Origin: an uncultured Christensenella sp.
GTDB lineage: Bacteria; Bacillota; Clostridia; Christensenellales; UBA3700
NCBI GenBank assembly: GCA_910578245.1
Contig: CAJTPC010000003.1
Span: 5,259-69,258, forward strand
Direction of reading: 5' to 3'
DNA: 64,000 nt
The translations under genes were made by a program, and so were the position numbers. This document shows, in pieces, positions 540 to 19,280 of this stretch; position 1 is the stretch's first letter, and every line of letters begins with the position of its first letter. The notes beneath the pieces were generated by a model. The model worked only from the letters and a program-made list of their open reading frames with translations, had not been told where the DNA came from and searched no databases.

Positions 540-557
540 TTGGAAAGAGGTTGCGAA

Positions 558-3297: not shown

Positions 3298-3358
3298 TCC
3301 TAATTTCTTTACAAAAAGTATAGACATAAATACAACACCATCAAATCTAATGCAATTA

Positions 3359-3387: not shown

Positions 3388-3445
3388 ATGCTATAAGGAG
3401 ATATTGGAAATAAAGTCAGTCAACACGCAAGGTTGAGTATAATGT

Positions 3446-4066: not shown

Positions 4067-4377
4067 AAATGTAAATACTGAAATGTTGCTGAAAATTTGC
4101 ACAGCTATTTTTGACTTGCCTTTATAGGGGGTATTCCGATTATAGAACTCATCATTTAAAGGAAAGTCTTTATTATTATACAATATATATGGAATTTAAA
4201 TAATACCTATTCTTTAGTTTACTTTTCCTTTAGATTATACTATAATATATCTACAAGGTTTTCTATTAATATGTCTTTCGACAGGATTGATTTACGCAAG
4301 CTAACCAAAAACCCCTTGCATAAAAACAAGCTAAATGTAGGAAGACAGACAAAGACGAAAAACGATAACAAATATAG

Positions 4378-4407
4378 AGAGACCTTGTGAAAACGAGGTC
4401 TTTTTTC
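4378..4407 (+). terminator. rho-independent terminator-like hairpin inside module A
   Basis: AGACCTTG / CGAGGTCT stem with one G-U pair, loop tgaaaa, followed by TTTTTT. Confidence 0.5.
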
Positions 4408-4492
4408 TATGTTTATAGGCTTGGAACAAGCCAATTATGTTAAAGAGTATCCTCAATAAATTAAGTGAATAAGGTGTCAAAAAAAATTGTAT

Positions 4493-4557
4493 GCTTGCGT
4501 AAAGCAATCTTGTCGCAAGACATCGGTTGTCTTTCGACAAGATTGATTTACGCAAGC
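4493..4557. repeat. 65-nt near-perfect palindrome at the junction of the two modules
   Basis: The left arm (4493-4521) and right arm (4529-4557) are reverse complements with 2 mismatches in 29. The loop is atcggtt (4522-4528). Isolated half-arms lie at 4273-4301 and 4745-4773. Confidence 0.85.
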
Positions 4558-4640
4558 CCCCCAAAAATAACTTGCACTAAATTAAGCGAGATGTAGGAAG
4601 ACAGACAAAGACAAAAAACGATAAAACAAAGAAATTTAAG

Positions 4641-4669
4641 AGAGACCTTGTGAAAACGAGGTCTTTTTT
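4641..4669 (+). terminator. rho-independent terminator-like hairpin inside module B
   Basis: Same sequence as in module A: agagaccttgtgaaaacgaggtctttttt. Confidence 0.5.
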
Positions 4670-4794
4670 CCTATTTATGAGCCTAAATGAGTGAAGAGTA
4701 TCCTCAATAATTAAGTTACATCAAGTGTCAAAGAAAAGTGTCAGGCTTGCGTAAAGCAATCTTGTCGCAAGACATCGGTTCAGCATTCAATTCA

Positions 4795-4927: not shown

Positions 4928-4956
4928 TTGAAAACTCTTGATTATTGTGATATAAT
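4928..4956 (+). promoter_or_regulatory. near-consensus sigma-A promoter of the nine-gene operon (TTGAAA - 17 nt - TGaTATAAT)
   Basis: TTGAAA at 4928-4933, a 17-nt spacer, an extended -10 TG, and TATAAT at 4951-4956. An AAGGAG RBS at 4984-4989 precedes the ATG at 4995. Confidence 0.7.
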
Positions 4957-4994: not shown

Positions 4995-6938
4995 ATGACG
5001 AATTTCGTTAAGAATTTGGAAGTTGCTATAGACCTTGGCAGTGATACAGTCAAGGTTGCGTATGCTTTTGAATCTAAAAATAGCGTAGAATACGGCAAAC
5101 TTGCCCCTTGCGATATTACGGGAAGTGTGATAGTTCCCGCCATTGCTTACTACGATGAGGAAACTTTGTCTTGGCTATTCGGAGAAGAGGTGTATAAAAA
5201 CGTCGATAGGTCTTTCGTGACCGTAGTCAAGATAAAGTCGTTGTTGTCACTACTTCTCATTCGTCGTAATAAGAGAGTGACGGCAAGCAACAAACAGTAT
5301 TATTTCGATAAAAATTTATTCCCCAAGTTCTATTTCCCCAACAGGAAAAAACTTGCCGAAGACTTTGCTAAGGCTGAGGACTTGGACATGACTTTTAAGG
5401 CCAACAAGACTCCGCAAGAAGTGTGTGAAGAGTTTTTTGGATATTTGATTGATAATACCGTAATGCCAGCAATTCAGAGGTTGCAAAAAGAGAGGGGGAT
5501 TCACTTTGAAAATATCAATTATTCGCTGGTGTATCCCACCAAGGCGGGCAAGGAATACGTTGAAGAGCTGGAGCGTCTGGCAACTCGCGCATGCGGGAAA
5601 GATATGAAAAAAGTTTTGTCTTCTACGAAAGCGTTGGGGCTATTTGCATACCACAGACAAGTGCTAAAGAAAGGAGATGCGGTAGTAATTTTCGATATGG
5701 GCGAGGAGGATATATCCGTCGCAAAATTCACTCTTAATTCATCGGGAAGTATGATTATCGACGGCGTGGACGGACACAATGAGCCGATGGAGATAGGCGG
5801 AAACGACTTTGACTATGCTTTAAGAGATTACGTGGAGGGCGTTATATCAGACAGAGAGACGGTAGGCGCTCCGCCTTCGGGCGAGGACGGATATATTGCC
5901 GAAAAGGGATTGCATTCAACGCAGTTTTTGACGCTCAACGAGATAAAAAAGACTAAGACGGCGCTTTCGCTAGACGATGAAATATTCGAACTTGCTTTTA
6001 AGGACGGCGTGACTATGTCCATACAGCGCGACGTTGTAGTTCAAACAGGCGTTACGAGAGATGATTTCCTTAAGTGCGTGGGTATAAAGAATAGCGATGG
6101 CGTAGCTAAAAAGATTGCCGATTATATAATCAGCGAGATGAAGAGAACTCTTAATAATGATGTGGATAAAGTGATGCTTTCAGGCGGGGTAAGCGAGACG
6201 TACGGACTTATAGAATATATAGACGGGCAGTTGAAAAACGCCGGCTTGCGAGTAGAGATTATCACATTTGACGACTATCAGAGCGAGGACGATAACTTTA
6301 CGATACTTTCTAACGAGGACTCGACTTTTGCTCCCGCGGTAGGCGGAGCTATCGTAGCGCTTATGGGATACGAACTCAAGATGGCGGTCGCGTTATCGTA
6401 CGGCACATGGTTGTACAACAAAAATATAAACAAGAAAATACTTGACGTTTTCTTGCTAAGAGGCAGAGTTATTCCTCCCAAGGGCGGGGAGTATTCCTGC
6501 TCGACTTACGTCAACTATAAGGACGCTTGGTCGGATAGAGTAAGGAACGAGGAGATTTTCTCTACTACGATTGGCAAAAAAGGCGACGTTATTGGCGACC
6601 CCGACAGCGAGATAAGAAGACAGAGAGAAAAAGATATTGACCTCAAGGTCGTGTCTGGCGGAGCAAATAAGGGCGAGATACTCTTTTATTGCAAGGATAA
6701 AGGGTCTTTGAAACGCGTGGAAATTCAAGGACTTCTCTATTTCAAAGAGGGCGTGAAGATAGACCCCGACGGCAGAGCTACGCCATTTATACACAATGAC
6801 GTGATGAAGAACGGCAGATATAATATGATACTTGTAAGACCTGTAGGGTCGTCGAGTTATCCTAAAAAGACCTATTATGAGAATATAGTATTAAAATTCA
6901 GCGGAGTCGACGACTTTGAAGTCGAGAGTTCCGATTGA
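4995..6938 (+). CDS. Hsp70/DnaK-like ATPase (actin-fold NBD plus beta-sandwich-like domain; no helical lid)
   Basis: AIDLGSDTVKVAY parallels the DnaK phosphate-1 motif GIDLGTTNS. VVIFDMGEEDISVA parallels FDLGGGTFDVS. EIGGNDFDYAL parallels LGGEDFD. VMLSGGVSETYGL parallels LVGGSTRIP. ALSYGTWL...RGRVIPPKGGEYS parallels PLSLGIET...RNTTIPTKKSQ of the substrate-binding domain. Confidence 0.8.
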   Translation: MTNFVKNLEVAIDLGSDTVKVAYAFESKNSVEYGKLAPCDITGSVIVPAIAYYDEETLSWLFGEEVYKNVDRSFVTVVKIKSLLSLLLIRRNKRVTASNKQYYFDKNLFPKFYFPNRKKLAEDFAKAEDLDMTFKANKTPQEVCEEFFGYLIDNTVMPAIQRLQKERGIHFENINYSLVYPTKAGKEYVEELERLATRACGKDMKKVLSSTKALGLFAYHRQVLKKGDAVVIFDMGEEDISVAKFTLNSSGSMIIDGVDGHNEPMEIGGNDFDYALRDYVEGVISDRETVGAPPSGEDGYIAEKGLHSTQFLTLNEIKKTKTALSLDDEIFELAFKDGVTMSIQRDVVVQTGVTRDDFLKCVGIKNSDGVAKKIADYIISEMKRTLNNDVDKVMLSGGVSETYGLIEYIDGQLKNAGLRVEIITFDDYQSEDDNFTILSNEDSTFAPAVGGAIVALMGYELKMAVALSYGTWLYNKNINKKILDVFLLRGRVIPPKGGEYSCSTYVNYKDAWSDRVRNEEIFSTTIGKKGDVIGDPDSEIRRQREKDIDLKVVSGGANKGEILFYCKDKGSLKRVEIQGLLYFKEGVKIDPDGRATPFIHNDVMKNGRYNMILVRPVGSSSYPKKTYYENIVLKFSGVDDFEVESSD

Positions 6939-6952
6939 GAGCGGAGGACAGA

Positions 6953-9766
6953 ATGGGAAAGAAATTTACGTTAAGATGTGGCGACGGCGCATTTGATAAG
7001 GATGTTCAACGCTCCAAGATAGCGGGAGAAGTCCGCCCATTTGACGCAAAAATGGCGACTTTGACTAAGTGCGCTGAAGAGCTTGACAGATACGACGATT
7101 TTGCCGAGCTTAAAATCAAGCCAGACGTTTATAAAAATCAAGGCGGTAAGTACGGTATTATTCCACTTGCGGATAAAGGCGGTCAGGCTATTCTCAAAGG
7201 ACAGCAGACGGCAGTTACGATTTTTCTTAAAGAATTGAGAGGTTTCGGACTTTTGGCGGACGTAGTAGGTAGCGGTAAGACTTTTGAAGCGTGCGCTATA
7301 CTAAGCGAACTTGCAGTCAGAGGCAAGATGAAGTCGCTCCTTTTAGTCGTACCGTCGCAGGTATACGACAGCTGGATAAACGTACTCGAAAATCTTTTCG
7401 GACTTGGAGAAGGCGTGCTTTTGCAAGTTGAAGATCCGCACTTTGATGAATGCGAGGAAGTTCTTGACGGATACGTAAGACGTCCTAAAAGACCTGTTAT
7501 CGTCAAGACGGAAGACTTTGTAAAGTGGAATGAAAATCAAATAAAAGACGTACTTTTCGACGTGGTAGTCGTAGACGAGGCGCATCACCTTTGCACGGAA
7601 GAGGGCGAATACGCTAAGGCAATGAAATTGTTATCAATGCTTATGATGACAAAGAAGAGAGCCAATTCGACCTATTGCGTATTGCTGTCGGCTACGCCGC
7701 ACTCGGGCAACCTCGACAAGATGTTCAGGCTTTGGTACTTCGTGCGTTGTAAGGGCGGTAATCCCGACGACTTCGACGTCAAGGACGATAAGGACCGTAC
7801 TCTCGATTACAAAAAGGAAAAGGAGTACTATAGACTCAACGTTTGCCGTGGCGCAAATACCGTGTCGGAATTTATTACGGCTGTCAAGCAATTTGAAATT
7901 GATAATAATTACACAGCTCCTTTCAATGCCTTCTTGAGAAAAAAGAAAGAACTCGACAAGTGGGATAACTATACTCAAGGCGAAAAGCAAGTCTTGAGAG
8001 AAGAGTTTTTGAATTTGGACGGCAATGAGAATATTCGTCAGGAAGTACTTAAGAGAGTTGCCGGCGCATATCACAACGGCGTATTGAGAACTATAATGAT
8101 ACGCCAGCCAAACGAGCTGAGCAAGTCGAGATTCGTATACAACAACTATTTCTATCCCATAGCGCCAACAGGTAGAATACTAACTACGCAAGGCGTGGAC
8201 GGCAGGACTATCAAAGTCGATTTGAAGGCGCTCAATACCAATAAGGCTGTAGAAGTAGACGGAGCGTTTTATTCGCTTAAGAGCTATGCCGAAGAGTTCT
8301 CAAAGAATGACAACGCTCAAGAGGCGTACGCAGAATTGGTAGTGTCCAAAATACTCGGTAAAATCGGGTCATTCAACGATCCGAGCATGTTTGATAAGAA
8401 AGACAGCCAAAAGTATTATTGGGAGCAGTTTGAGCGTAAAATAGCGTCGGAGAGCAACGATAGTTTTTGGCTTATGCCGGCGACTAACGACAGCTTTGAT
8501 TACAAACTCAAGCAGGCAAAGAAGATTCTTGACGAACACGCAGGCGAGAGAGCGTTGATATTTTTCGATTATGATTTGCCAAAGACTAGCAAGGGCTACC
8601 GTCAATGGAATAAGGTTATAGACGCGCTCCAAGCCGAGGAAAAGTTTAAGAACAGAATTATCGTAGGAACGGCGGAGAATAAGGACAAGAACGTCAAGAA
8701 GTTCTTGCAAAAAGAAGACGCTATTTTGATAGTCACCGATTCGGCGTTTACCGAGGGCGTCAATTTGCAGGACAGCAGAATTATAATCAATTTCCAAGTT
8801 ACTCCCGATCCGCTTGCTATGGACCAGAGAATCGGACGTGTGTTCCGCCTCGGACAGTCGAGCGACGTCAAGATATATTCCTTTGCGGACATGAACAAAC
8901 TTGAGGGATTTGCGCTTGCGTACTTCAATAGTATAGGACTTCTCACCAGCAACAGCGGTGACGCTACGATTATTGCGGGAAGTAACAACGAGAGAATGGT
9001 AGCATTGCGATGCCCCGCTTGCGGAAAGGTTGCGCTGTACTCGAAGGGCGATTATGAGATTGCAAAGAAAAAAGGCGAAACGTATTGTATCAACGAGCCG
9101 AAACTTTGTTGTCTTGACGACCCAAGAGGCACGCTAATGGAAGAAATCAACGTCTATGAATTCAAGTGTTCAAACTGTTCGACGACTCTCTCGCGTAGCG
9201 TCGGCGAGGGCGGATATAAATGTATATCTAAAAACAACGACGATAGAGGCACTATGTGCAATAGCGGAGCTTCGGGAGATAGGGAGTATTACTGCTCGAA
9301 GATATGCGCTATGCGACACTGCTCTAGGTTTAAGGGCGAGTTCAAAGGCAAGTGTAAGGTACTCAAAGCGTATGAGGAGAATCCCAACGTAGCTACATCG
9401 GACTTGCAGATTATATGCGCAAAGTGTTCCAACAAAGCCGAGTGTCCGCAAAGATGCAGATACGGAGTGGGCAGAGCAAGTATCGAGGCTTGCGCTTCGT
9501 GTAGGAACGCCGAGTGTCATCCTAAGCCGTATACCATATCGTTTGACGATAAGTGGTCGGCTAAATGTCCGATATGCGCGCAGAGGGGCGAAAAGGGAGT
9601 TTTGTATCCCGTAGTAGCTAGGACATTCGCGGCGTATATGAGAGCGTCTTGGGACTTTAAGCACGATGGCGGAGAATCTTTCTGTAACAACTTAATGAAA
9701 GAAGCAAGTAAAGTAGCGGATATAAAAGCTATATTGTCTATGGACAGTATGTCGGAGGGGAGGTAA
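6953..9766 (+). CDS. SNF2-family helicase with a C-terminal Cys-rich (multi zinc-ribbon) domain of about 250 aa
   Basis: Motif I is LLADVVGSGKTFEA (7268-7282 encodes GSGKT). Motif II is VVVDEAHHL (DEAHH at 7574-7588). Motif III is LLSATPHSGN. Motifs V/VI are TEGVNLQ and DQRIGRVFRLGQ. The tail from about 8990 carries at least 9 CxxC-type clusters. ATG 6953 follows a GGAGGA RBS; the ORF track begins at TTG 6935. Confidence 0.85.
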   Translation: MGKKFTLRCGDGAFDKDVQRSKIAGEVRPFDAKMATLTKCAEELDRYDDFAELKIKPDVYKNQGGKYGIIPLADKGGQAILKGQQTAVTIFLKELRGFGLLADVVGSGKTFEACAILSELAVRGKMKSLLLVVPSQVYDSWINVLENLFGLGEGVLLQVEDPHFDECEEVLDGYVRRPKRPVIVKTEDFVKWNENQIKDVLFDVVVVDEAHHLCTEEGEYAKAMKLLSMLMMTKKRANSTYCVLLSATPHSGNLDKMFRLWYFVRCKGGNPDDFDVKDDKDRTLDYKKEKEYYRLNVCRGANTVSEFITAVKQFEIDNNYTAPFNAFLRKKKELDKWDNYTQGEKQVLREEFLNLDGNENIRQEVLKRVAGAYHNGVLRTIMIRQPNELSKSRFVYNNYFYPIAPTGRILTTQGVDGRTIKVDLKALNTNKAVEVDGAFYSLKSYAEEFSKNDNAQEAYAELVVSKILGKIGSFNDPSMFDKKDSQKYYWEQFERKIASESNDSFWLMPATNDSFDYKLKQAKKILDEHAGERALIFFDYDLPKTSKGYRQWNKVIDALQAEEKFKNRIIVGTAENKDKNVKKFLQKEDAILIVTDSAFTEGVNLQDSRIIINFQVTPDPLAMDQRIGRVFRLGQSSDVKIYSFADMNKLEGFALAYFNSIGLLTSNSGDATIIAGSNNERMVALRCPACGKVALYSKGDYEIAKKKGETYCINEPKLCCLDDPRGTLMEEINVYEFKCSNCSTTLSRSVGEGGYKCISKNNDDRGTMCNSGASGDREYYCSKICAMRHCSRFKGEFKGKCKVLKAYEENPNVATSDLQIICAKCSNKAECPQRCRYGVGRASIEACASCRNAECHPKPYTISFDDKWSAKCPICAQRGEKGVLYPVVARTFAAYMRASWDFKHDGGESFCNNLMKEASKVADIKAILSMDSMSEGR

Positions 9767-9767
9767 T

Positions 9768-11417
9768 ATGGCAAGAATACATATAGGAAACGAATATTGC
9801 AAGACCTTTGACAGCATAGTCAAACTATACGAAGAAGGTTGCGTTGAGGACGGCGTTATTACAAAAATCGACGGCGATAGAATTGTCACGCCATCGCATG
9901 AATTCGTCCTATCAAGAGGAAGGTCAAGCAAGACTGGCGCGGAAAGAACGGCTTTGATAAACGAAAACGGCGCGACTTGGTTTGGCGCGTTCAGAGGCGA
10001 AAAATTCAAGAACAACACCGCCGAATGGCTAATGTTCGTAGAAACGATAAAGGAGCATTTCCATCGCAATTACTCCGTACTCGAATACCGTCCGAAGATC
10101 AAAGAAATATCCAAGGAATACGTCAATTCTCAAATAAAGCTGATTGACAACGCCTTGAAGTGTTTTTATGACGACTACGCTTTTGAGATAAAGAGAGCGG
10201 ACGATGAGGAAGGATTAGAGGACGTGTACGGCGCTTCGTTCAGAATGGAAATTACCGACGGTACAGGCGAAGCAGTACCGGTGCTCGGCAAGATATATTT
10301 CCGCAAGAAAGGAACTTCGTTTATCCCATTTAGCAGTAGTGAAGCAGAATTGATAGACGCGCATATCACCAAGAATTTCGACAGTGAAGAAGAAGGAGAG
10401 AATTTCTTGCAAAACAGCGCTCAATTGACGGATACTGTGGTCAACGAACTCGATAAACTCGTCAATTCAAGTAAGAACGACTTATCGTCAAATCTAGTGT
10501 TTACCGACCCTGCCGATAAAGAAGCAGTAGAACTTATGGTAGAAAAAGGACCTAACGATAACGTTGAATTGACTTGTTTAAGCCTTTCGCTACTCAATAT
10601 CTTCCACTTCAAGTGGCGAAGCGACATATACAACATTTTGCTAGAAGACAAGATTGTTCTTAAAGCAAGCGTGGGACTTGGCGGAAGATTGACTGTTTCG
10701 TGCAATTCATGCGCAGAAAAAACTACGCTTATAGAAGCCGGTAAAATCACTTTGAATTTCAAAGGAGCGCGCAGGAGCGTTACGATAGACCCAAAACTTG
10801 AGGATCTCAATTTGACGGCCTCGGCTATCGAAACGGCTAAAGAAAATCTTTTCTCAAAGCATTTGAAGAGAATAAGTTGCAATGAGAACGCGCGTTTGGC
10901 AGGTATATGCACCAAATATGTTTGCAGTGGCGATACCGTTACAATATCTTCTAAATCAGGATCAGTCTGCAAGTGCAAGAACTGTCCGCATCCGGAAGTA
11001 ATTTTTAAGTGCGACGACGGAGCGGTGAGATATACCAAAGACTTGGTATTTGTCAGAGACGCTATGACGCTTATGCCTAAGGAGAATACGGTAGAGTGTA
11101 GTTGTTGCGGTAGAACGTTTACTAAAGACAGCGATAAAGCTCAGTATACTTGCGATTTTTGTAAAATTGCGGACAGAGGTCTTGACGCTCTAGACGACAC
11201 CGAGTATCAAAGAGGCAAGACTTTGTATGGTAAGTACAGAGGTATGTTGCCGTTGACTACTAGGATGAAGAGCGCAAAACTGAAAAAATACTGTCAGGAA
11301 GATGAAGACTGCATTATGTTTGTTATAGATAAAGAGGTGTATATCTTCAATAAGGACGAGCAAGGCGAAGGCGGATTCCTAAAAGCGCCAATGCGCAAAA
11401 TCGGAGGTGAAGTATGA
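9768..11417 (+). CDS. hypothetical protein with a Cys-rich (zinc-ribbon-like) C-terminal half
   Basis: The ATG lies 1 nt after the SNF2 stop, with GGGGAGG upstream. Cysteine clusters include SCNSCAEK, CKCKNCPHPEVIFKCDD, ECSCCGRTF and YTCDFCK. No recognised catalytic motif. Confidence 0.7.
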   Translation: MARIHIGNEYCKTFDSIVKLYEEGCVEDGVITKIDGDRIVTPSHEFVLSRGRSSKTGAERTALINENGATWFGAFRGEKFKNNTAEWLMFVETIKEHFHRNYSVLEYRPKIKEISKEYVNSQIKLIDNALKCFYDDYAFEIKRADDEEGLEDVYGASFRMEITDGTGEAVPVLGKIYFRKKGTSFIPFSSSEAELIDAHITKNFDSEEEGENFLQNSAQLTDTVVNELDKLVNSSKNDLSSNLVFTDPADKEAVELMVEKGPNDNVELTCLSLSLLNIFHFKWRSDIYNILLEDKIVLKASVGLGGRLTVSCNSCAEKTTLIEAGKITLNFKGARRSVTIDPKLEDLNLTASAIETAKENLFSKHLKRISCNENARLAGICTKYVCSGDTVTISSKSGSVCKCKNCPHPEVIFKCDDGAVRYTKDLVFVRDAMTLMPKENTVECSCCGRTFTKDSDKAQYTCDFCKIADRGLDALDDTEYQRGKTLYGKYRGMLPLTTRMKSAKLKKYCQEDEDCIMFVIDKEVYIFNKDEQGEGGFLKAPMRKIGGEV

Positions 11418-14400
11418 AAAATATGATGTTTTCTAGCAATGAAAATATTGATTACTCTCAATCTACAAAAAAGACTTTCGGTAGCAGAAAGTTATTCCTA
11501 TTTATTATGGCTGTCTTGGCGACAGTCAGCGATTTTGCGTTGTTGGTAGTATTTGCGATTTCGGGACACGGCGGAATAGCGGTACCGGTGATATTGTTGA
11601 TACTCGACGGCTTGTTCATTGCGGGCGTATGTCTATGTAACTTCAGATTTAAGTATTCCATTGGCGTATGGGTAGCTTATATAATAATTTCCGTCATTAT
11701 TACGGCATTTTTGGCATTGCTAGATACAAAAGCAACGTATATGACGACTACGGCAAAATATCTTAACGTGTTCGCGCATATAGTGTTGTATCTCGTCACG
11801 ATTTTTGCAAGCATATATCCGCTGTTTAAGAAGAATATAAAACTAAAGGCAGTTATGATAACTTGCGTAACCGTAGCCGTTGTTTTGGTAGGCGCGTTTG
11901 CCGTATACTTTTCCGCCAACGGTTATTTTGGTCAAGGCTTCTTAGGCGAGAGCAGAGTAGTGGGCTATACGCTTGACGAGGAGAGCGATACTTATATTGC
12001 GTCTTTAGTTAAGTCGGGTAGAAGTAAAAAAGTCGTCATTCCGGCGCAGTTCAACGGCAAAAAGGTGTCGGGCGTGGAGTGCGAGATATTTACGGACAAA
12101 ACTGTGAATTTGGTAGAGATACAGACCGAGGAAAGTATTAGACTGTTAAATCCGCAAATGATAGAGAATATCAATCCCAATATCAAGATAGGTATAGATA
12201 AGAAGTATATCGACGTCTTTAGAGAAAAGGGACTTAAGGAACACGAGAACTACGGCGTAGGCGACGGTATGCTTAATTTTGCCAACGCTTTGTATCCTCT
12301 CAATCTCGCAAGCGATGAGGTATACGTCACCTTTAAGTATCAAGATTATCCTGAGCAAGAGGATATTATACCTACTTGGATAGGAAAGAAGGGACAGACT
12401 TTCAACCTAAATTATGCGAACGTAGATTATTTGCAACACGTCGACGCTCATAATGTGGACGATTTGGTATGGTGCTATTACAATAATGACACGCAAATTT
12501 TGACGGGCGAAATGATAAATCTTACCGGCAATAAAATCAGCGACAGCTTAGACAGCGTCAAAGTCGATTTTGAAAACGTATACAGATTTACAATGGCGGA
12601 CGACAATGACGGAGTATATGAGCCGGCGGATAGTTTTAAGACTACTCTCAGTAACAACGAGTTGTACGCGTATCGTTTCTTTACGATTGGCGGAGCCAGA
12701 GAATTACTTGATGATTTAACCGGTGAATTGATTGAGGATAGAGATAACGGATTTGACTTATCTTGGCAGTTTAGTTTGAAGTACAATTCCAATAGCTGGC
12801 AAAATGAAGATTGGTTTGATTTGGATATTGATAACTTTTTAATCAGTCTTGATGTACTCTCAAGTTATGCAAGCGATGAAATAAATCTAAAACTAAAGCC
12901 GATATGGGAACTTAAAAAACCTACTGATTTGAAAATATCTTACTTCAATAATAAGGTTGACTACGTTTACGGCGATGACGTGCGTATGGACGTAAGCGCA
13001 GAAGCGCCACTCAAGGGTTGTCAACTAAAATATAGTTGGTCGTGGCAAGGCGACGTCTATGGCGATGGAGAAGACAATGCCGATTCGACCGGCTTGACTT
13101 ACAGTATCAACAACGCATTCCCGCAAGAAGGAGTTTTTACGGTATACGTTGCCGTAAGTTATCCGGAAGTGACGGACTTGGAATCGTTTGACACGGTTTG
13201 CGCCCTTTTGCAAGTTGACAAACGTCCTTTGAATATAACTTGGGAAGAGCCTGCCGATATGGTTTACGACAGTTATGAAAAAGTCTTGAAGCATTACGTC
13301 GGCGATAACGAATTGATAAACGGCGACACGTTGGATTACGGTATGACCGAAACAAACGTGAGCAATATCAATGCGGGACGGTATACGGCAAGGCTGTCAT
13401 TGTACGGAATCATTGACGAAATGTATATAATTACTTCAGGCTCAACGTATTCTTATACGATTGCTCCCCGTTCTGTTCAAACTCAATGGACGAGCGTAGA
13501 CTATACTTATGACGGAAATCCGCACAATGCGATTGCTACCGCTCAAGGCATAGATTCGCTCGTGCCAATCAACTTGTCAAGCGCAAAAACCAATGCCGGC
13601 AAGTATACGGCGGTTGCTTCGTCTGCAAGCAGCAATTACGTATTGACAGACAATACCCATGAATTTGAAATCAAGCAAAAAAGCATTACGATAGGAGCTT
13701 GGAGCAGTACTCCTATTACGTACAACGGCTCGGCTCAATATCCGAGAGTCGCTACTATCAACGGACTTGTAGGCAACGAGAGCGTAAACAGCCAGCTTAT
13801 TTATTCGGGATACGCTTCTAATATTGACGCCGGAGAAGGTTACAGCGTAACCGTGACGTTGCCTTCGTCAAGCAACTATAAGTTTGACAGCGCTCAATCT
13901 ACACAGTATAATATAGCAAAGAGAGCGTTGAGCGTACGGCCAATCGTATCTGGCAAGACGTATGACGGATATGCAATCAGTCTTAACTTTACGGCAAGCG
14001 GTCTTGTGGGCGCGCACACCAACGGAAGCCTCGGAACGCCGACGTATAGCGGTAACGGAATGGGCGCGATAGACGTAGGTAGTTATACGGTATCAATATC
14101 GCTTCCTAATAATGACGTGACGAAGAACTACGACATAACGTATGCGAGCGCGTCCTTTACAATAACAAAAAGAGCGTTGAGTATCCGAGCGGTTGCTTCG
14201 AATAAGACCTATGACGGTAAGACAAATACCTTTGACTTTGAAGTAGTCAGCGGTCTTGCAAGCGCGCATACGAAGAATAGCCTCGGAACGCCGACGTACA
14301 GCGGTAACGGAGTAGATGCGGTAGACGCAGGCAGTTATTCTGTATCAGTGTCGCTTCCTAATAATGACGTGACGAAGAACTATAACATATCTTATGCAAG

Positions 14401-14698
14401 CGCCAACTTCACTATTTCGAAGGCTAAAGTAGCTCTTGTATGGAGCAATGTCCTTGTCAGCGACGGAAGAGTGACTGCGCCTAGCGTTGTGACAAGCGGA
14501 CAGGTTTATTCGGGAGATATCAGCGTAGGAAGTTATACGTATAGAGATTCCTCCGGCAGAATAATTAATTCGATACCTGCCGTAAGCGGAACTTATTACG
14601 TTGAAGTTGCGGTTACGAGCGGAAATTACAGCTTTACGAATACCCATATCAACTTTACGGTATCCGTAGGCGAAACTCAAGAAAAGGAGGTAGCGTAA
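11414..14698 (+). CDS. 5-TM membrane-anchored protein with a large extracytoplasmic region of MBG/YDG-type repeats
   Basis: The ATGA start/stop overlaps the upstream gene. Five hydrophobic helices lie within residues 25-170. Repeated modules carry (T/K)Y(D/N)G ... G(K/S)Y(T/S) ... NY signatures (YTYDGNPH, ITYNGSAQ, KTYDG x2), typical of MBG-type adhesin repeats. Confidence 0.75.
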   Translation: MKNMMFSSNENIDYSQSTKKTFGSRKLFLFIMAVLATVSDFALLVVFAISGHGGIAVPVILLILDGLFIAGVCLCNFRFKYSIGVWVAYIIISVIITAFLALLDTKATYMTTTAKYLNVFAHIVLYLVTIFASIYPLFKKNIKLKAVMITCVTVAVVLVGAFAVYFSANGYFGQGFLGESRVVGYTLDEESDTYIASLVKSGRSKKVVIPAQFNGKKVSGVECEIFTDKTVNLVEIQTEESIRLLNPQMIENINPNIKIGIDKKYIDVFREKGLKEHENYGVGDGMLNFANALYPLNLASDEVYVTFKYQDYPEQEDIIPTWIGKKGQTFNLNYANVDYLQHVDAHNVDDLVWCYYNNDTQILTGEMINLTGNKISDSLDSVKVDFENVYRFTMADDNDGVYEPADSFKTTLSNNELYAYRFFTIGGARELLDDLTGELIEDRDNGFDLSWQFSLKYNSNSWQNEDWFDLDIDNFLISLDVLSSYASDEINLKLKPIWELKKPTDLKISYFNNKVDYVYGDDVRMDVSAEAPLKGCQLKYSWSWQGDVYGDGEDNADSTGLTYSINNAFPQEGVFTVYVAVSYPEVTDLESFDTVCALLQVDKRPLNITWEEPADMVYDSYEKVLKHYVGDNELINGDTLDYGMTETNVSNINAGRYTARLSLYGIIDEMYIITSGSTYSYTIAPRSVQTQWTSVDYTYDGNPHNAIATAQGIDSLVPINLSSAKTNAGKYTAVASSASSNYVLTDNTHEFEIKQKSITIGAWSSTPITYNGSAQYPRVATINGLVGNESVNSQLIYSGYASNIDAGEGYSVTVTLPSSSNYKFDSAQSTQYNIAKRALSVRPIVSGKTYDGYAISLNFTASGLVGAHTNGSLGTPTYSGNGMGAIDVGSYTVSISLPNNDVTKNYDITYASASFTITKRALSIRAVASNKTYDGKTNTFDFEVVSGLASAHTKNSLGTPTYSGNGVDAVDAGSYSVSVSLPNNDVTKNYNISYASANFTISKAKVALVWSNVLVSDGRVTAPSVVTSGQVYSGDISVGSYTYRDSSGRIINSIPAVSGTYYVEVAVTSGNYSFTNTHINFTVSVGETQEKEVA
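13919..14419 (+). repeat. two adjacent 83/84-aa coding repeats (about 250 nt each) inside the MBG protein
   Basis: KRALSVRPIVSGKTYDG...SLPNNDVTKNYDITYASASFTIT aligns with KRALSIRAVASNKTYDG...SLPNNDVTKNYNISYASANFTIS. An identical 32-nt block tcgcttcctaataatgacgtgacgaagaacta occurs at 14099 and 14351. Confidence 0.85.
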
Positions 14699-15843
14699 TG
14701 AAGTGCAATAAATGTAATCACGACATTGAGAGACCTTTGGAACTTTACAACGGTAGGTGGTGTTGTCCGAGTTGCAAGAAAGACATCTTCCCCGACGTTG
14801 ATACTGAATTTGTAATTACCGCTCACAATAGAGAATTATTCGTAAGGTCGGAAGAGTATTATTTCAAATGGCTTACGTCCTCCGATGAGAGTAAGAGCGT
14901 AAGATTTAAGTATTTAGATAAGGCGGTCAGTCTTTGCTATGAGTCAGCTTTCGAATACCATCCGTCTGCTCTTATGAGATTGGGATATTATTATGATAGA
15001 GGCTATGCCGATTTTAGCTCGGCTGGAGCGGAAAGATGGAGATCGGCGTATTTCTATTACAAAGCCGTACTCTTCAATACACATAGAGGAATATCTACTC
15101 AAGAGGGAGAAGAGAGATATGCAGACGACCTCACGCAAATCAAATTGCAGTGCGGCAAGTATATGCTTGACTTACTAAAACAAGCTCCTTTAGAGGTGAC
15201 GAATAAAATTTCTTTTGACGGTTATGAGAATCTTGAAAAGTTGACGAGTGAAGTTATAAATAAGATAGTTTCGCTAGGCGGTACAGTTGGGCAATACGAC
15301 GGTCAGAGCGCAACTCGCGAGCAAGACATGTCGGCAATGGCTTACGCATCGCTTAGAGCTTGCGCCGATGAAGAGAGAGCGCCTGTATTCGCTATATTTA
15401 AGTTGAGTAAGTATGAGGCGCAAAAGTTGATATTAGGCTCGTCCGATAGCGATTTTTCCATAGTAGAACGCGTAGGAAGAGATTTGCGTCTTAAGATTGC
15501 AAGCGCGTATGACGACAAGGAGATAGACGGTAAATTCGCCGATTTCAAAAACTCCAATTCGCTCGTCAATTACGTGCAGAACAGATGTCCTGATAAGGGA
15601 ATATACCTATGTTTCTTTAATTGGCTAGGGGGGCATAAATATCTCAAGAAGAGAGATAGAAGCCGTGTTTGTCAATGCTTGGAAGACAACTCTTGCGCGG
15701 GCATCAAGTTGCTTATAAGAGCAGGCAAATACAATTCTTGCGTATTCTACGACGACGACTTTTATAAGTATGACGAGGGACGCAAGGGATTGAGTAAAAA
15801 AGAAGTAGATAAATTTGTCAAAGAAGTTTGCGAGGTGATTTGA
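14698..15843 (+). CDS. N-terminal zinc-ribbon protein with a possible Sel1/TPR-like segment
   Basis: The TAATG start overlaps the upstream stop. MKCNKCNHDIE...WCCPSCKKDIF forms a CxxC-N16-CxxC ribbon. ALMRLGYYYDRGYA...ERWRSAYFYYKAV loosely resembles a Sel1 repeat; this part is tentative. Confidence 0.65.
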   Translation: MKCNKCNHDIERPLELYNGRWCCPSCKKDIFPDVDTEFVITAHNRELFVRSEEYYFKWLTSSDESKSVRFKYLDKAVSLCYESAFEYHPSALMRLGYYYDRGYADFSSAGAERWRSAYFYYKAVLFNTHRGISTQEGEERYADDLTQIKLQCGKYMLDLLKQAPLEVTNKISFDGYENLEKLTSEVINKIVSLGGTVGQYDGQSATREQDMSAMAYASLRACADEERAPVFAIFKLSKYEAQKLILGSSDSDFSIVERVGRDLRLKIASAYDDKEIDGKFADFKNSNSLVNYVQNRCPDKGIYLCFFNWLGGHKYLKKRDRSRVCQCLEDNSCAGIKLLIRAGKYNSCVFYDDDFYKYDEGRKGLSKKEVDKFVKEVCEVI

Positions 15844-15844
15844 G

Positions 15845-17338
15845 TTGTTAGACCTTGAAAGGCTGTTGGACGCGCTTGACGAAAACAAAGTCAAGTATCC
15901 AAAAAAATTCAAAAATATCGAACTTAACGGTTATGACAGCAACCGTTGCGAGGACTTTGCCGATGATTCAAGGAAGGCTATTGAATGGCTTTTGGCAAAG
16001 GGTATCAACAATGGCTTTGACAATAATATCAAGACTGCAATTTACGATCTTGCCGATATGGCGGGAGATATGTCCAAAGATAATATCGCAGTAAAACTCG
16101 ATGATATGCAGGACAAAAAACAACAAATTATCAAGAAGTTCAGATTGAACAAAGGAGAAGGCAAAATGGCAGATATAAAGGGAGAAATCTTAGCTTACGT
16201 CGACAATTCGATTTTCGGTACGAAAATGCTTATTGACAGCGACAGCGTATCGGACTACAATAAGTCGATACTTATGAATTCGCTTGAGATGCTTGAGGAG
16301 TTGAGATTCATAATCGAGGACGCTTTGGACAACTCTTCCGAGGACGCGGCGCACAGAGCAAAGTACGTCTACGGCGATCCCACTTACGCGTTGTGCGCTT
16401 GGAGAGAGAGCGTTGCGCGCGGTATGTTCTACGATGGACTGAATAAGCACCTTGAAGAGGCCAGAGCAGAGGCTGTCAAATGGACGGAACTTACCAAAGA
16501 AGTTAAAAAGAATAAGAGAGCCAAAGAAGCTGATATAAAGGTATATACCGACGATATGTTCTCCAAAATGGTCAAGAGAGATGAGGTCAAGGAAAAAGGC
16601 GACGCTTTCTTTGCAAAACTCAATACCTTTGACAAGCAATTCGAGATACAGAAAGATACCTATGACAGAGTGTCGGAAATCAATAGCGATATAGAGGAAA
16701 TTCAAAGCAAAATATCCGCGCTTATCGACAAAATGGACAGCGGAGAAATGCTTGAAGAAGAAGCTCTCTTGCAGATAGAGATGCTTCAAGACGATGAAGA
16801 ACTCAAAAAGACGGAGAGAGAAACGTATAGAGCAAGCCTTAAGATGATTGCTAGTACCGTATCGGGAATGAAGAGATTGCTCACGCAGTTCAAGAGATTG
16901 GAACTCATATTCAATATGTATCAAAAGGTAGAGCCTAATATGTTCTACGCTATGTTCTCCAATATCGACTTCAACACTTTCTTAGACGTATTGAGTTACG
17001 GCGCAAGCGAAACGCAAATTAATACGGCGCTCAGTTATTATGAAATAGTAATGGAAAACGTGCAGGATCAGACTATGCATATGGCGCAAGTAGACAATCG
17101 CTTTGCAGAGGCGAATAAGATTTTCGACAGATTCAAGACTCCGCAGAAAAAGAAGACGGCGCAAGACGCCGAGAAAGAAGAACAAGCTAAAAAAGATAAG
17201 ATTGCCGAGCTTCGTAAAAAGTATAAAAAGCCTGCTCCGGTAGTTGAAAATAAAGAAAAAGAAGAAGAGCAACGCGTTGAGAATGACGAAAATGACGATT
17301 TGACGCAGATTATCAATACTATAACACCTAAAAAATAA
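15845..17338 (+). CDS. long alpha-helical/coiled-coil protein with a K/E-rich tail (hypothetical)
   Basis: TTG start 1 nt after the upstream stop, with a GAGGTGA RBS. Strongly helical, charged sequence. The C-terminal 70 aa is a K/E/Q-rich low-complexity region. Confidence 0.65.
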   Translation: MLDLERLLDALDENKVKYPKKFKNIELNGYDSNRCEDFADDSRKAIEWLLAKGINNGFDNNIKTAIYDLADMAGDMSKDNIAVKLDDMQDKKQQIIKKFRLNKGEGKMADIKGEILAYVDNSIFGTKMLIDSDSVSDYNKSILMNSLEMLEELRFIIEDALDNSSEDAAHRAKYVYGDPTYALCAWRESVARGMFYDGLNKHLEEARAEAVKWTELTKEVKKNKRAKEADIKVYTDDMFSKMVKRDEVKEKGDAFFAKLNTFDKQFEIQKDTYDRVSEINSDIEEIQSKISALIDKMDSGEMLEEEALLQIEMLQDDEELKKTERETYRASLKMIASTVSGMKRLLTQFKRLELIFNMYQKVEPNMFYAMFSNIDFNTFLDVLSYGASETQINTALSYYEIVMENVQDQTMHMAQVDNRFAEANKIFDRFKTPQKKKTAQDAEKEEQAKKDKIAELRKKYKKPAPVVENKEKEEEQRVENDENDDLTQIINTITPKK

Positions 17339-17358: not shown

Positions 17359-18111
17359 ATGGCAAGCAGAGATCAAAAGGAAAGACAGCTAAAACAAGCT
17401 ACGCCCGATCCGTATGAGAAAATAATGGCGGACAATCAACGCAAGTTGGAGAGCAAAATGCTCGATGGAAAGCGTAATGAAATGGAAATGGCTATAGAGG
17501 ACCTTGGAAGAAAGGCGATAGAAAGCGAAATGAAATATGGCTCAGAACATTTCAATACCAAGATTTTGACAATGTTCTACAACGTGACCTTCACTATGAA
17601 AGAGTTCGTAGGAATGATGTTCGCGATGAAAGAAGCTATGAGCGTGCTTTCGCAGACTATGAATATCATGGACGACGTATTTAATTTCATCAATGAAATG
17701 ATGATGATTGACAACTACGGCAGTTATTCGGCTTTGGGTCGTATGAAATTGCAACGCAGAATTCGCAAATTCGTAAAGCACAATTCTAATAGAATGAAAG
17801 CTATGTTCAAAATGGTAAGCGGTTACGGTAAGATTGCCGATGGCATGATGAACGCTATGGGTAGCTTCGATAAAAAACTCAAGAAGAGTATGGACGCAAG
17901 CAAAGGCAAGAAGAAAAATGATAACGTTGTAGCGGGATACGAGAGCGAAGCGCAAAAACAACTTGCTAAAATGAGAGAGCAAATGTCAAAAGAAAATTCT
18001 GACGATAGCGACGGCGAGAGCTCGACTGGTAGCGCTCCAAGCGGAACGCCGACAAATAGCGGAGCGTCCGCTTCAGGCAGTGGCGATATCAATATCGACG
18101 ATATTGTGTAA
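17359..18111 (+). CDS. Met-rich helical protein with an acidic/Ser-Gly tail; possibly ESCRT-III/Snf7- or PspA-like
   Basis: ATG with a GAGGAG RBS. 250 aa. The core is basic and helical (AMKEAMSVLSQTMNIMDDVFNFINEMMMID, RMKLQRRIRKFVKH). The tail is disordered and ends in GDINIDDIV. The family assignment rests on composition and architecture only. Confidence 0.6.
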   Translation: MASRDQKERQLKQATPDPYEKIMADNQRKLESKMLDGKRNEMEMAIEDLGRKAIESEMKYGSEHFNTKILTMFYNVTFTMKEFVGMMFAMKEAMSVLSQTMNIMDDVFNFINEMMMIDNYGSYSALGRMKLQRRIRKFVKHNSNRMKAMFKMVSGYGKIADGMMNAMGSFDKKLKKSMDASKGKKKNDNVVAGYESEAQKQLAKMREQMSKENSDDSDGESSTGSAPSGTPTNSGASASGSGDINIDDIV

Positions 18112-18134: not shown

Positions 18135-19280
18135 ATGGCAAACGACGAGCAGAAAAAAGAGGGCGTAGAAGAGCTTGAGAGTAAGCTCCGCGCCGTCACG
18201 GAAGATATTCGCAAGATACTGGGCGGTCGCAAGGACAAAAAAGACGTGGGCGAGGAAGATAAGAATACGTTGCGTTCAAAGTATTCTCAAGCCGCTCAAA
18301 TTGCGCGCACGCTTTCAAATAGATGTACCGATACCGACAAGATAGAGAAGTATTCTAAGTTTTATAAGCAACTCAGCGACGCGGCGGCTAGTTACGGCTC
18401 GGTACTAAAGAGCAAAGTTCCTAATACAACTTTGGACGACGTCAAAGGACTTGACGACGTCAAGGCTCTCGTCAAGAGTTTTATCTTCATGGCTCGCAAT
18501 CCCGAGATACTTAAGTATTATAAAATGGAAGGCGGATTGGGTATGCTTATGTACGGCGCGCCCGGTACCGGTAAAACTATGTTTGCCGAGGCAATAGCCA
18601 ACGCTATGAATCTACCTCTCTTTATAGTTACGCCAGCAGATATTTTCAAGTCATACGTAGGCGAGTCGGAGCAAGCCGTAAAGCAAATATTCGATGAGAT
18701 AGACACATGTCCGGACGGCGCAATACTTTTCGTCGATGAGTGCGAGTCTATCTTTAGCAGACGTACTCAAGATACCAAGGACTATAAGTCGGCGGTTACT
18801 ACTGAACTTTTGCAACGTATCAACGGCTTTGGCGTTGACGGTTCGAAGAGAATTATGATCGGCGCAACAAATAGACCAGACGTAATAGATCCGGCGTATT
18901 TAAGATATAAGAGATTTTCGCATATAGTTCACGTTACGCCTCCTGATTTTGAGGCAAAGAAAGCTATTATAGAAGGCAAACTTAAGGGGATAGAACTTGA
19001 CGATATATCGCTTGAAGAAGTCGTCAATATGACTAAGGAGTACACCAATGAGGTGGACGACAACGGCGAAGTGCGCACGGTTGCGTACTATTCCGCGGCG
19101 GATATATGCGGTATTATTGAAGAAACTTGTCGTTACGCATTAGAAGAGATAGAGGAGAGCGGCGGGAATAAGGCAATACCTTTGCGCCTTGATATGTTTG
19201 AGAGGGCGTTTAAGAAAATCCCGCCAAGCATAAGCGCAGGATTGCTCGAAGAATACGAGAACTTCCGCAATACTCATTGA
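18135..19280 (+). CDS. classical-clade AAA+ ATPase, Vps4/katanin/spastin-like, with an N-terminal three-helix (MIT-like) region
   Basis: Walker A is GAPGTGKT (18555-18578). Walker B is ILFVDECE (18726-18740 encodes LFVDE). SYVGESEQAVKQIF parallels SKWLGESEKLVK of Vps4. GATNRPDVIDPAYLRYKRF lacks the PGRFD motif of FtsH/Cdc48 and resembles the RRRFE-type meiotic clade. The first 90 aa or so form three predicted helices. Confidence 0.8.
   Translation: MANDEQKKEGVEELESKLRAVTEDIRKILGGRKDKKDVGEEDKNTLRSKYSQAAQIARTLSNRCTDTDKIEKYSKFYKQLSDAAASYGSVLKSKVPNTTLDDVKGLDDVKALVKSFIFMARNPEILKYYKMEGGLGMLMYGAPGTGKTMFAEAIANAMNLPLFIVTPADIFKSYVGESEQAVKQIFDEIDTCPDGAILFVDECESIFSRRTQDTKDYKSAVTTELLQRINGFGVDGSKRIMIGATNRPDVIDPAYLRYKRFSHIVHVTPPDFEAKKAIIEGKLKGIELDDISLEEVVNMTKEYTNEVDDNGEVRTVAYYSAADICGIIEETCRYALEEIEESGGNKAIPLRLDMFERAFKKIPPSISAGLLEEYENFRNTH

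Follow-up and report, generated by a model that had tools for sequence, protein, structure and literature searches.

A divergent, lid-less Hsp70-like ATPase encoded next to an SNF2-family motor in a conserved and probably conflict-type operon of uncultured Christensenellales

Proteins of the Hsp70 family normally function as J-protein-driven general chaperones. The present work concerns an Hsp70-like protein encoded in a stretch of 64,000 nucleotides (referred to here as the window) from an uncultured Christensenella sp. (assembly GCA_910578245.1, contig CAJTPC010000003.1, positions 5,259 to 69,258 of the forward strand). A preliminary description of this DNA, made by reading its sequence, noted at positions 4995-9766 a gene pair encoding a lid-less DnaK-like ATPase (p1) and an SNF2-family enzyme (p2), and it suggested that the former may serve a specific client rather than act as a general chaperone. 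The analysis reported here indicates that p1, based on its predicted structure, has the Hsp70 fold, though it is very divergent in sequence, and that the p1-p2 pair, as judged from the gene arrangement, is not a stand-alone unit but the front of an eight-gene operon (4995-19280). This operon is probably a conflict-type system comprising several nucleoside triphosphatases (NTPases), in which the Hsp70 fold has been re-used. The features of the gene pair are as follows:

4995..6938, forward strand: p1, lid-less Hsp70-like ATPase of 647 amino acids (aa), based on an AlphaFold2 (AF2) model, Foldseek and a family alignment
6942..6947, forward strand: GGAGGA ribosome-binding site of the SNF2 gene, read from the sequence, inside the p1-p2 spacer
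6953..9766, forward strand: p2, SNF2-family ATPase of 937 aa, based on Pfam and motifs

Lid-less Hsp70-like proteins, made up of a nucleotide-binding domain (NBD) and a substrate-binding domain (SBD), have been described in a predicted defence operon, viz. the type III (McrBC-type) CoCoNuT systems, where such NBD/SBD units are found in CnuD (PMC11090510). The ATPase motifs of CnuD are partly degenerate and this protein is described as weakly hydrolysing and possibly RNA-binding, while in some CoCoNuT systems a Cdc48-like AAA+ ATPase is encoded as well (PMC11090510). A lid-less NBD/SBD-like architecture is probably common to CnuD and p1, the two proteins being compared here by description only. 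However, neither a McrB GTPase nor McrC/DUF2357 was detected by Pfam, PADLOC and NCBIfam in the nine proteins (p1-p9) originally assigned to the operon or in the neighbours of the related loci, the CoCoNuT features HEAT repeats, CSD and HEPN were not found in the operon by Pfam and PADLOC, and the partner of p1 is an SNF2 enzyme. Hsp70-family proteins also serve as regulatory NTPases in multi-component prokaryotic conflict operons, viz. the GTPase-tubulin-HSP70 and GAP1-N2 GTPase-HSP70-GrpE systems (PMC7159879). These conflict systems are centred on GTPases, and some of them contain GrpE and DnaJ fusions, whereas the p1 operon has no GTPase, tubulin, GrpE or J-domain. These precedents for Hsp70-like proteins (PMC11090510, PMC7159879) were not part of the preliminary description. 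In the Zorya systems, a membrane complex senses invasion and recruits the SNF2-family nuclease ZorD (PMC11946911). The type I Zorya (ZorAB, ZorC, ZorD) and the operon described here have in common a proposed logic, involving a membrane sensor, helical/coiled-coil elements and an SNF2-family ATPase. However, the operon lacks the MotAB-like ZorAB, its p2 scores 21 bits against the NCBIfam ZorD cut-off of 1500 bits, and Zorya is without an Hsp70-like or AAA+ component; the parallel between the two is functional only. Neither the Hsp70-like/SNF2 pairing nor the operon was found to be described in PADLOC or in the literature, inclusive of the most relevant comparative-genomics papers, which agrees with the earlier remark that this pairing is not recognised from characterised systems. 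The operon does not qualify as a member of the canonical Hsp70, DISARM, BREX, Dpd, Zorya, Iet, CoCoNuT or ESCRT-III/Vps4 systems. The candidate memberships in DISARM, BREX, Dpd, Zorya, Iet and CoCoNuT were rejected, as the matches are limited to generic SNF2/AAA cores and the partner genes are absent.

The assignment of p1 to the Hsp70 fold is based upon its structural model. The AF2 model, built on the family alignment, has a pLDDT (predicted local distance difference test) value of 88.2 and a pTM (predicted template modelling) score of 0.84, and its layout consists of an NBD (residues ~1-457) followed by a linker/SBD-beta-like region and an extra beta module (residues 461-636). In Foldseek searches with this model against the PDB, all 50 of the top 50 matches were Hsp70/Hsp110 proteins (E 1.8e-22 to 1.5e-18; alignments of 626-681 columns), inclusive of DnaK, BiP, Hsc70, Ssb, Sse1, mortalin and Ssz1 of the yeast ribosome-associated complex (RAC), so that the structural check which had been proposed for p1 came out in favour of an Hsp70 fold. 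The alignments with lid-truncated DnaK/BiP chains extended over 655-667 columns against 504-523 residues, with a rigid-body TM (template modelling) score of ~0.5. Past residue 457, the model consists almost entirely of beta strands up to residue 636, and the only helices assigned there by DSSP are at residues 539-547 and 603-606. Because the region 461-636 consists of beta strands with just these two short helices, p1, whose chain ends at residue 647, is predicted to be without the alpha-helical lid (SBD-alpha), as had been proposed from its sequence. The C-terminal region is likely an SBD-beta-like sandwich with an extra beta module; a Pfam domain-level scan of residues 458-647 produced no match.

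The similarity of p1 to known Hsp70s at the sequence level is very limited. The match to the Pfam HSP70 model (PF00012) covers residues 196-290 only and, with 13.5 bits (E 0.021), it is below the cut-off of 20.6 bits; no NCBIfam Hsp70/DnaK model was matched, and a phmmer search against all PDB chains retrieved nothing. The other weak matches in the Pfam and NCBIfam scans were to the actin-fold families BcrAD_BadFG, AnmK and PilM. However, when a profile of the p1 family (79 members) was compared with the PDB, it matched only DnaK/Hsc70 (E 0.05-0.7), with the motifs in the correct register, although hhalign of the family against an approximate E. coli DnaK query gave 8% probability and aligned only the stretch from phosphate 2 to GGxDxD. 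The actin-fold/Hsp70 motifs recognised earlier in the p1 NBD can all be mapped in the 79-sequence family alignment. They comprise the phosphate 1 motif D13-L-G15-S-D17 with K20; the invariant K79, equivalent to K70 of DnaK; the phosphate 2 motif F-D234-M-G236, where position 234 is occupied by D in 69 of the 79 sequences and by N in 9; a further motif G268-G269-x-D271-x-D273; the adenosine motif S-G397-G398; and the E441-D442...G450 motif. The equivalents of DnaK D8, K70 and D194, both GG motifs and GGxDxD are thus invariant or nearly so in this family, and based on these residues the ability of p1 to bind ATP has probably been retained.

The conservation of the Hsp70 fold and of the key nucleotide-binding residues could suggest that p1 is a divergent general chaperone, which uses the DnaJ and GrpE proteins of the cell encoded elsewhere. 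However, the likelihood of this explanation is minimal. The protein has no lid, it falls under every curated Hsp70 threshold, its catalytic Glu and glycine loop have been replaced (see below), its family is tiny and lineage-restricted, and it is invariably coupled to SNF2. A search with the p1 family profile among 1.84 billion representatives identified 228 clusters, and no canonical Hsp70 was retrieved. As the family is both tiny and isolated from canonical Hsp70s, p1 is almost certainly not a general chaperone, and the gene which follows it is SNF2 in each of the loci looked at, so that the earlier suggestion in this regard is borne out. Further, the HPD tripeptide is absent from all nine proteins p1-p9, as noted before, and none of them has a DnaJ or GrpE Pfam match. 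In a scan limited to the window, dnaK, dnaJ and grpE were also not seen among the other open reading frames (ORFs) covered. Two ORFs of 633 and 397 aa at 39655-42799, which were considered as a canonical dnaK-dnaJ pair, are GlgB and GlgC.

The role proposed for p1 resembles that of Ssz1, which is also of the Hsp70 fold. Ssz1 is an atypical Hsp70 with a shortened SBD and, instead of being a free chaperone, it is a permanent subunit of one stable complex, viz. RAC. The RAC entries 6sr6_C, 5mb9_B and 7x3k_B are among the Foldseek matches of p1, with target-normalised TM scores of 0.57-0.60, and the description of the RAC core entry refers to a pseudo-substrate bound to the SBD of Ssz1. However, the partner of Ssz1 is the J-protein zuotin on the ribosome, whereas the p1 operon contains no J-domain and the fixed neighbour of p1 is an SNF2 ATPase. 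The sequence identity between p1 and Ssz1 is also only ~12-15%.

The fixed pairing of p1 with p2 argues for a dedicated role of p1 rather than one in general protein folding. In all 30 loci covering both genes (~25 of them non-redundant), down to a p1 identity of 25%, p2 is the gene immediately after p1, and in these loci the co-occurrence with SNF2 genes that the preliminary description had asked about is thus without exception. The p1 stop codon ends at position 6938 and the ATG of p2 is at 6953, leaving a 14-nt spacer with the GGAGGA sequence, exactly as had been reported. Although the first possible p2 start codon in the ORF listing is a TTG at 6935, the ATG at 6953 appears to be the better start, because GGAGGA precedes it. 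In 27 of the 30 related loci the spacer is 7-19 nt long. This organisation indicates that p1 and p2 are co-transcribed in all cases, and they are probably also translationally coupled.

In p2, Pfam identifies the SNF2-rel_dom at residues 84-267 (47.9 bits, cut-off 24.9) and Helicase_C at residues 518-634 (42 bits, cut-off 23.5). The motifs GSGKT106, DEAH208, SATP246 and QRIGR625 are all intact, and GSGKT, DEAH, SATP and QRIGRxFRLGQ are invariant among the aligned orthologues. An insertion of 280 aa between the two RecA lobes had been claimed for this protein. An insert is indeed present between the lobes, but the gap between the Pfam domains is ~250 aa (residues 268-517) and part of it is SNF2-specific sequence which is conserved, the poorly conserved insert being limited to residues ~395-515. 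The C-terminal domain (~280 aa) is Cys-rich, with Cys columns that are conserved in the orthologues, which is consistent with multiple zinc ribbons; Pfam domain-level scans of the insert and of the C-terminus yielded nothing. The best PDB relative of p2 is RapA, matched over lobe 1 only (49 bits), and its best model matches are DrmD, BrxH and DpdE, all of them partial and far under the curated cut-offs (NCBIfam scores: DrmD 100 bits against 610, DpdE 92 against 500). The SNF2 core is common to p2, DISARM DrmD, BREX BrxH, Dpd DpdE and RapA, whereas only in this operon is it joined to a C-terminal domain with multiple zinc ribbons and encoded with an Hsp70-like partner. None of the proteins DrmA/B/C, PglZ/PglX, DpdA and ZorA/B was detected in the operon by Pfam and PADLOC.

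The gene junctions within the operon range from -4 to +23 nt. Because of these tight junctions, and the presence of a single promoter-like site and a single terminator-like hairpin, the region 4995-19280 can be read as one transcription unit. The promoter candidate matches 11 of 12 consensus positions in addition to the TG extension, and it is the best intergenic site, located 39 nt 5' of the p1 ATG. The preliminary description had counted nine genes; however, the terminator-like hairpin follows p8 and the helix-turn-helix (HTH) gene at 19441-20046 lies beyond it, which leaves eight. The remaining features of the operon are as follows:

4928..4956, forward strand: operon promoter candidate, TTGAAA, 17-nt spacer and TG-extended TATAAT (consensus match only)
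9768..11417, forward strand: p3, 549 aa, N-terminal domain without an assignment and at least three C-terminal zinc ribbons
11414..14698, forward strand: p4, membrane protein of 1094 aa with hydrophobic segments and MBG_2 Pfam matches
14698..15843, forward strand: p5, 381 aa, N-terminal zinc ribbon, Sel1-like repeats and a C-terminal domain
15845..17338, forward strand: p6, helical/coiled-coil protein of 497 aa, PDB matches to coiled coils only
17359..18111, forward strand: p7, all-helical protein of 250 aa, based on alignment and an AF2 model
18135..19280, forward strand: p8, single-domain classic AAA+ ATPase of 381 aa, Pfam AAA 113 bits
19325..19352, forward strand: terminator-like hairpin 3' of p8, 12-bp stem followed by a T run, TTTTGATATTT (consensus match only)

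In addition to p1 and p2, the parts of the operon comprise a membrane protein, three operon-only proteins (two of them with zinc ribbons), two helical proteins and an AAA+ unfoldase. PADLOC, PHROGs, NCBIfam and Pfam contain no models for p1, p3, p5, p6 and p7; in these collections p4 matches only the generic MBG repeat, and the PHROG matches of the operon proteins are limited to the generic AAA domain. The protein p3, for which no Pfam, PADLOC, PHROG or PDB match was found, contains 11 invariant Cys and one His in an alignment of 14 orthologues; it occurs only in these operons and its position is kept in every locus that covers it. For p5, a match to the Sel1 repeat was seen at a marginal level only (E 9e-4), its C-terminal domain carries an invariant F-x-D-D-D motif in the alignments but no Pfam match at the domain level, and a profile search retrieved operon orthologues only.

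The largest and most variable product is p4, whose length among the relatives ranges from 1061 to 2273 aa. Several hydrophobic, transmembrane-like segments are present within its residues 26-173, where a Pfam domain-level scan gave no match. After them comes a large region of MBG repeats, rich in beta structure, which is presumably an ectodomain. The MBG part is the fastest-diverging stretch of the operon, while the transmembrane part is better conserved. In one related locus (L007), the MBG part is 31-65% identical per 100-aa block, as against 92% for p2 and 94% for p8. The size, variability and mid-operon position of p4 raise the possibility that the operon serves to make, export or anchor this protein as an adhesin, with the ATPases acting as specialised chaperones or secretion helpers, and Hsp70-like and AAA+ proteins can serve in protein targeting. 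However, an SNF2 translocase, zinc-ribbon proteins and an SF1 (superfamily 1) helicase-nuclease (described below) fit no export role, and secretion-system components were not detected by Pfam and NCBIfam. We thus regard this explanation as very doubtful.

The p6 protein contains a charged low-complexity linker and then, in comparisons across loci, a conserved acidic-hydrophobic C-terminal tail; similarly p7, in all orthologues, contains a disordered Ser/Gly/Ala/Pro-rich linker followed by the extreme C-terminal sequence DI(N/S)(I)DDI(V/L). The two tails (17290-17338 and 18085-18111 in the window) are alike and in one related locus (L016), for example, p6 ends in ...LQINDIV and p7 in ...DINIDDIV. 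This suggests that the two proteins dock through a common type of tail, possibly onto the AAA+ ATPase encoded next to them, and from these shared endings and the adjoining p8 gene we infer that they are handles for the p8 unfoldase. The best PDB matches of p8 are to VAT/p97 D2 (E 4e-66), with a Walker A motif at residue 141, a Walker B DE at 201 and a conserved N-terminal region of ~90 aa. However, it has one AAA domain and scores 153 bits against the 802-bit NCBIfam cut-off for Cdc48, and the sequence comparisons thus place it as a classic-clade AAA+ ATPase nearest to Cdc48/p97/VAT D2 which is not Cdc48 itself. An ESCRT-III/Vps4 relationship, which had been suggested by p7 being all-helical with an acidic tail motif and by a match of p8 to CdvC, was rejected: the AF2 model of p7 is helical but of low confidence (pLDDT 56.8) and without significant fold matches (the best CdvB2 and CdvB matches have E values of 2-8), its profile retrieved nothing relevant from the PDB, and p8 scores 131 bits against a CdvC cut-off of 650 bits, with no MIT match in residues 1-100. 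Similarly, although p8 matches IetA of PADLOC (E 4.6e-33), its score against the NCBIfam anti-phage ATPase (listed as IteA) is 99 bits against 510, and no protease, such as the Iet partner IetS, is present in the operon of the window.

The relationships of p2 and p8 to RapA and Cdc48/p97 D2, which are the best solved relative and the nearest family, respectively, could also be interpreted in terms of a surveillance of RNA, transcription or translation. In such a case p1 would have the role suggested for CnuD, binding either RNA or nascent chains associated with the ribosome, the RapA-like SNF2 enzyme would act on stalled RNA polymerase and the Cdc48-like AAA+ protein would extract stalled products. 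The degenerate phosphate-2 loop of p1 recalls the CnuD units, and Cdc48-like ATPases are present in some of the CoCoNuT systems (PMC11090510). However, the RapA match is to the generic lobe 1 only, no RNA-binding domain, HEPN, SmpB-like or McrBC component was found by Pfam and PADLOC, it is not evident what the large surface protein would do in such a scheme, and the effector which is added in the relatives combines a DNA helicase with a restriction-endonuclease fold. Overall, this explanation appears quite unlikely.

Information regarding the distribution and evolution of the operon was obtained from several searches. A sequence search with p1 identified ~212 clusters of 640-730 aa, and all of the named ones are from uncultured Clostridia. 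The contexts of p1 homologues at 39-44% and at 25-28% identity, the latter being the most distant reached, show the same gene order, viz. the Hsp70-like protein, SNF2, a ~550-590 aa protein, a large MBG protein and a ~375 aa protein, followed, in those 39-44% loci for which the retrieved DNA is long enough, by a ~495 aa protein. By anchoring on p5 and using one genome per GTDB species, 28 loci were gathered, which are labelled as Christensenella sp., Christensenellaceae, Borkfalkia, Pumilibacteraceae, Alloclostridium and unclassified Clostridia; all of the organisms that carry the operon are uncultured. In the BLAST survey, p1-p6 are collinear wherever covered and the p7-p8 pair is present wherever the locus reaches. 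Across the loci, p8 is the most conserved operon protein (63-99% identity) and p4 the least (25-93%). Among contigs carrying an identical flanking YjbR gene, both of the distinct places shown include operon genes within reach. In contigs of near-identical strains, the AAA+ gene encodes only 245 aa in one case (L036, 1951-2688) and p3 is split into pieces of 293 and 253 aa in another (L037, 9799-11166); these could be either assembly errors or real strain-level disruptions.

The majority of the distant loci contain two extra genes, pX and pY, between p6 and p7, making it a ten-gene operon. These genes are absent from the window, and their location in the relatives is as follows:

L017, 12643-19114, also L018-L030: region of the extra genes pX and pY, absent from the window

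The pX protein (~640 aa) contains an invariant HExxH...E motif, due to which it may be a zinc peptidase, and profile searches for its function gave nothing beyond this motif; its gene is duplicated in three loci (L023, L025, L028). The pY protein, 1500 aa in length, is an SF1 helicase in which DUF4011, AAA_11/12 and, at the C-terminus, REase_MTES_1575 are recognised, and it matches PDC-S37 (4e-119) and Hhe (1e-54) of PADLOC. It resembles these single-gene helicase-nucleases but is embedded in a ten-gene operon; Hhe is said to have been validated experimentally as a single-gene defence system by Gao et al. in 2020. In the clade of the window (12 loci, to 57% p1 identity) pX and pY have been lost, with all eight other ORFs intact, whereas in the L031/L032 clade only pY was lost. 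A defence-type helicase-nuclease was probably part of the operon ancestrally. The resulting picture of an operon of eight to ten genes, with a membrane/surface protein, a Cdc48-like AAA+ protein and, in most relatives, an Hhe-like helicase-nuclease, goes beyond what was noted earlier from the gene pair.

On the 5' side of the operon, positions 1-4066 of the window form a low-GC block (30-33%, compared with 41-46% in the operon), where a gene for a serine recombinase/resolvase (1994-2770) is accompanied by several ORFs that match no family. This block, which borders the operon, is probably a mobile element of small size that has become integrated. Just 5' of the operon promoter, at 4271-4775, there are two adjacent copies of a ~256 bp element, which are 79-88% identical. 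Each copy is flanked by inverted repeats of 31 nt (TGTCTTTCGACAGGATTGATTTACGCAAGC and its complement) and has a terminator-like hairpin (4376-4405 and 4638-4669). This element has no Rfam match at the gathering threshold, and it looks like a miniature inverted-repeat transposable element or a small-RNA cassette. Beyond the terminator-like hairpin, the gene at 19441-20046 encodes an HTH-XRE protein with a C-terminal transmembrane segment and a zinc ribbon, and it is convergent with a YjbR-domain gene (20050-20883); both are conserved in the two nearest relatives only. Further downstream are a tRNA (21460-21531, reverse strand), a 1354-aa BspA-type leucine-rich-repeat surface protein (21910-25974) and a glycogen cluster consisting of GlgB, GlgC, GlgD-like, GlgA, GlgP and an amylase, as well as PFK and Mfd/TRCF (these genes lie within 39655-51469 and 59672-63118). 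Except for the operon and its 5' flank, the window is ordinary chromosome. The operon flanks differ between the deeper lineages, and even between relatives at 80% and 91% identity. Small conflict-type genes are found next to some of the related loci, viz. a toxin-antitoxin-like pair of nucleotidyltransferase and NTase_sub_bind (L003, 9149-9839), a GIY-YIG protein (L033, 2114-2362) and, a few kb downstream of the operon, a C-5 cytosine methyltransferase (L007, 19304-20428).

Based on these results, p1 appears to be a dedicated, J-protein-independent subunit of Hsp70 type in a multi-ATPase system acting on nucleic acid. The reading which we favour, though only tentatively and with somewhat less than an even chance of being correct, is that the operon encodes an envelope-linked multi-ATPase system against invading DNA, in which p1 is a built-in regulator of the SNF2 motor. 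According to this proposal, an envelope event would be reported by the membrane protein p4, the helical and zinc-ribbon proteins would serve as a signal relay or scaffold, DNA would be engaged by the SNF2 motor, together with the helicase-nuclease where pY is present, and the assembly would be reset when the AAA+ unfoldase pulls p6 and p7 by their tails. The beta domain of p1, by its nucleotide-dependent opening and closing, would grip an extended segment of a partner protein, for which the SNF2 enzyme and its zinc-ribbon partners are the likeliest candidates, and by holding this segment p1 would gate the motor, somewhat as Ssz1 acts as a stable subunit of RAC. In favour of a role in defence are the invariant SNF2 motifs of p2 and its partial matches to DrmD, BrxH and DpdE, the matches of pY to PDC-S37/Hhe, the modular gene content (loss of pX/pY in some clades and duplication of pX in others) and the fast-evolving surface domain of p4, while the common tails of p6 and p7 next to an AAA+ gene are in accord with the proposed scheme. 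Precedents for this scheme are provided by the Zorya membrane sensor with its SNF2-family nuclease effector (PMC11946911) and by the lid-less Hsp70-like units of other systems (PMC11090510, PMC7159879).

However, a number of observations weigh against this reading. With regard to p1 itself, the position of the catalytic Glu of DnaK (E171) is aligned with a Ser (SST segment, residues ~209-211), and the phosphate-2 loop is G-E-E-D instead of the G-G-G-T of Hsp70s; neither replacement had been mentioned when the NBD motifs were first listed. Due to these two changes, hydrolysis of ATP by p1 may be slow or absent. Its beta region also contains ~15 strands, compared with 8 in SBD-beta, and the TM score for the whole chain is ~0.5. 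As to the operon, PADLOC has no model for p1, p3, p4, p5 and p7 and only a chance-level weak match for p6, and the version in the window lacks the pY helicase-nuclease as well as any recognisable nuclease or toxin. Further, every identified match of the operon is from gut Clostridia of the Christensenellales type, no relative of p1 was found in the phage (INPHARED), plasmid (PLSDB) and viral (IMG/VR) collections, and nothing was seen that would point to its transfer into other phyla or mobile elements. The absence of p1 relatives from these three collections, together with the PHROG matches being only to the generic AAA domain, also led us to reject a phage, plasmid or viral origin. Lastly, in four loci with p1 identities of 57-81%, the same major facilitator superfamily (MFS) transporter gene lies downstream of the operon, which has the look of a long vertical inheritance that is unusual for defence systems.

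In view of the narrow distribution, the lack of signs of transfer, the shared MFS neighbour and the lack of a recognisable effector in the window, a serious rival is that the operon encodes a lineage-specific housekeeping machine that links the envelope and DNA, with the Hsp70-like and AAA+ proteins functioning as assembly/disassembly factors. It could function in the uptake or export of DNA, in the handling or segregation of the nucleoid, or in an assembly process at the surface. All of the genes co-diverge from 97% to 25% identity within one group of Clostridia with the gene order remaining constant, the MFS gene is retained over the above range, the phage, plasmid and viral collections hold no p1 relative, the window is of chromosomal context with glycogen genes, PFK and Mfd, and all eight ORFs remain intact in the clade that has lost the nuclease. 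However, a housekeeping machine is not readily reconciled with the modular content of the operon (pX being lost or duplicated and pY lost), the defence-associated nature of the families nearest to p2, pY and p8, or the variation of the flanks between deeper lineages and between the 80% and 91% relatives, and no known housekeeping process uses such a set of proteins. We therefore consider this explanation as somewhat unlikely, though it is to be taken seriously.

A bolder possibility, which is unlikely, is that the operon represents a new envelope-to-DNA machine, where a J-protein-independent, lid-less Hsp70 regulates an SNF2 translocase from within, and where the assembly as a whole is coupled to a surface-exposed membrane receptor and reset by a Cdc48-like unfoldase which recognises C-terminal tails. 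In eukaryotic Snf2 remodelers such as INO80/SWR1, a split ATPase is found together with actin-fold subunits and an AAA+ ring, and a machine of this kind would be their bacterial counterpart. If it proves to be true, it would constitute a new way to use Hsp70, either in immunity or in a lineage-specific cell process.

The p1 family forms a small, isolated branch, which has remained tied to one SNF2 motor over a deep divergence, and p1 would thus be a clean natural case of the Hsp70 fold being re-used as a dedicated subunit of a nucleic-acid machine. Three classes of NTPases (Hsp70-like, SNF2 and AAA+) are present in the operon, and a fourth (the SF1 helicase-nuclease) in most relatives; in addition, five of the operon families (p3, p5, p6, p7 and pX) are without recognisable relatives, and p1-p2 and p6/p7-p8 are concrete candidate pairs of interacting proteins. 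There is a modest chance that the operon is categorically new. If it is an immune system, it would represent a new multi-gene architecture, and possibly an envelope-sensing mechanism, in abundant uncultured gut Clostridia, whereas if it has a housekeeping function, it would point to a cell-biological process new to science that is specific to the Christensenellales.

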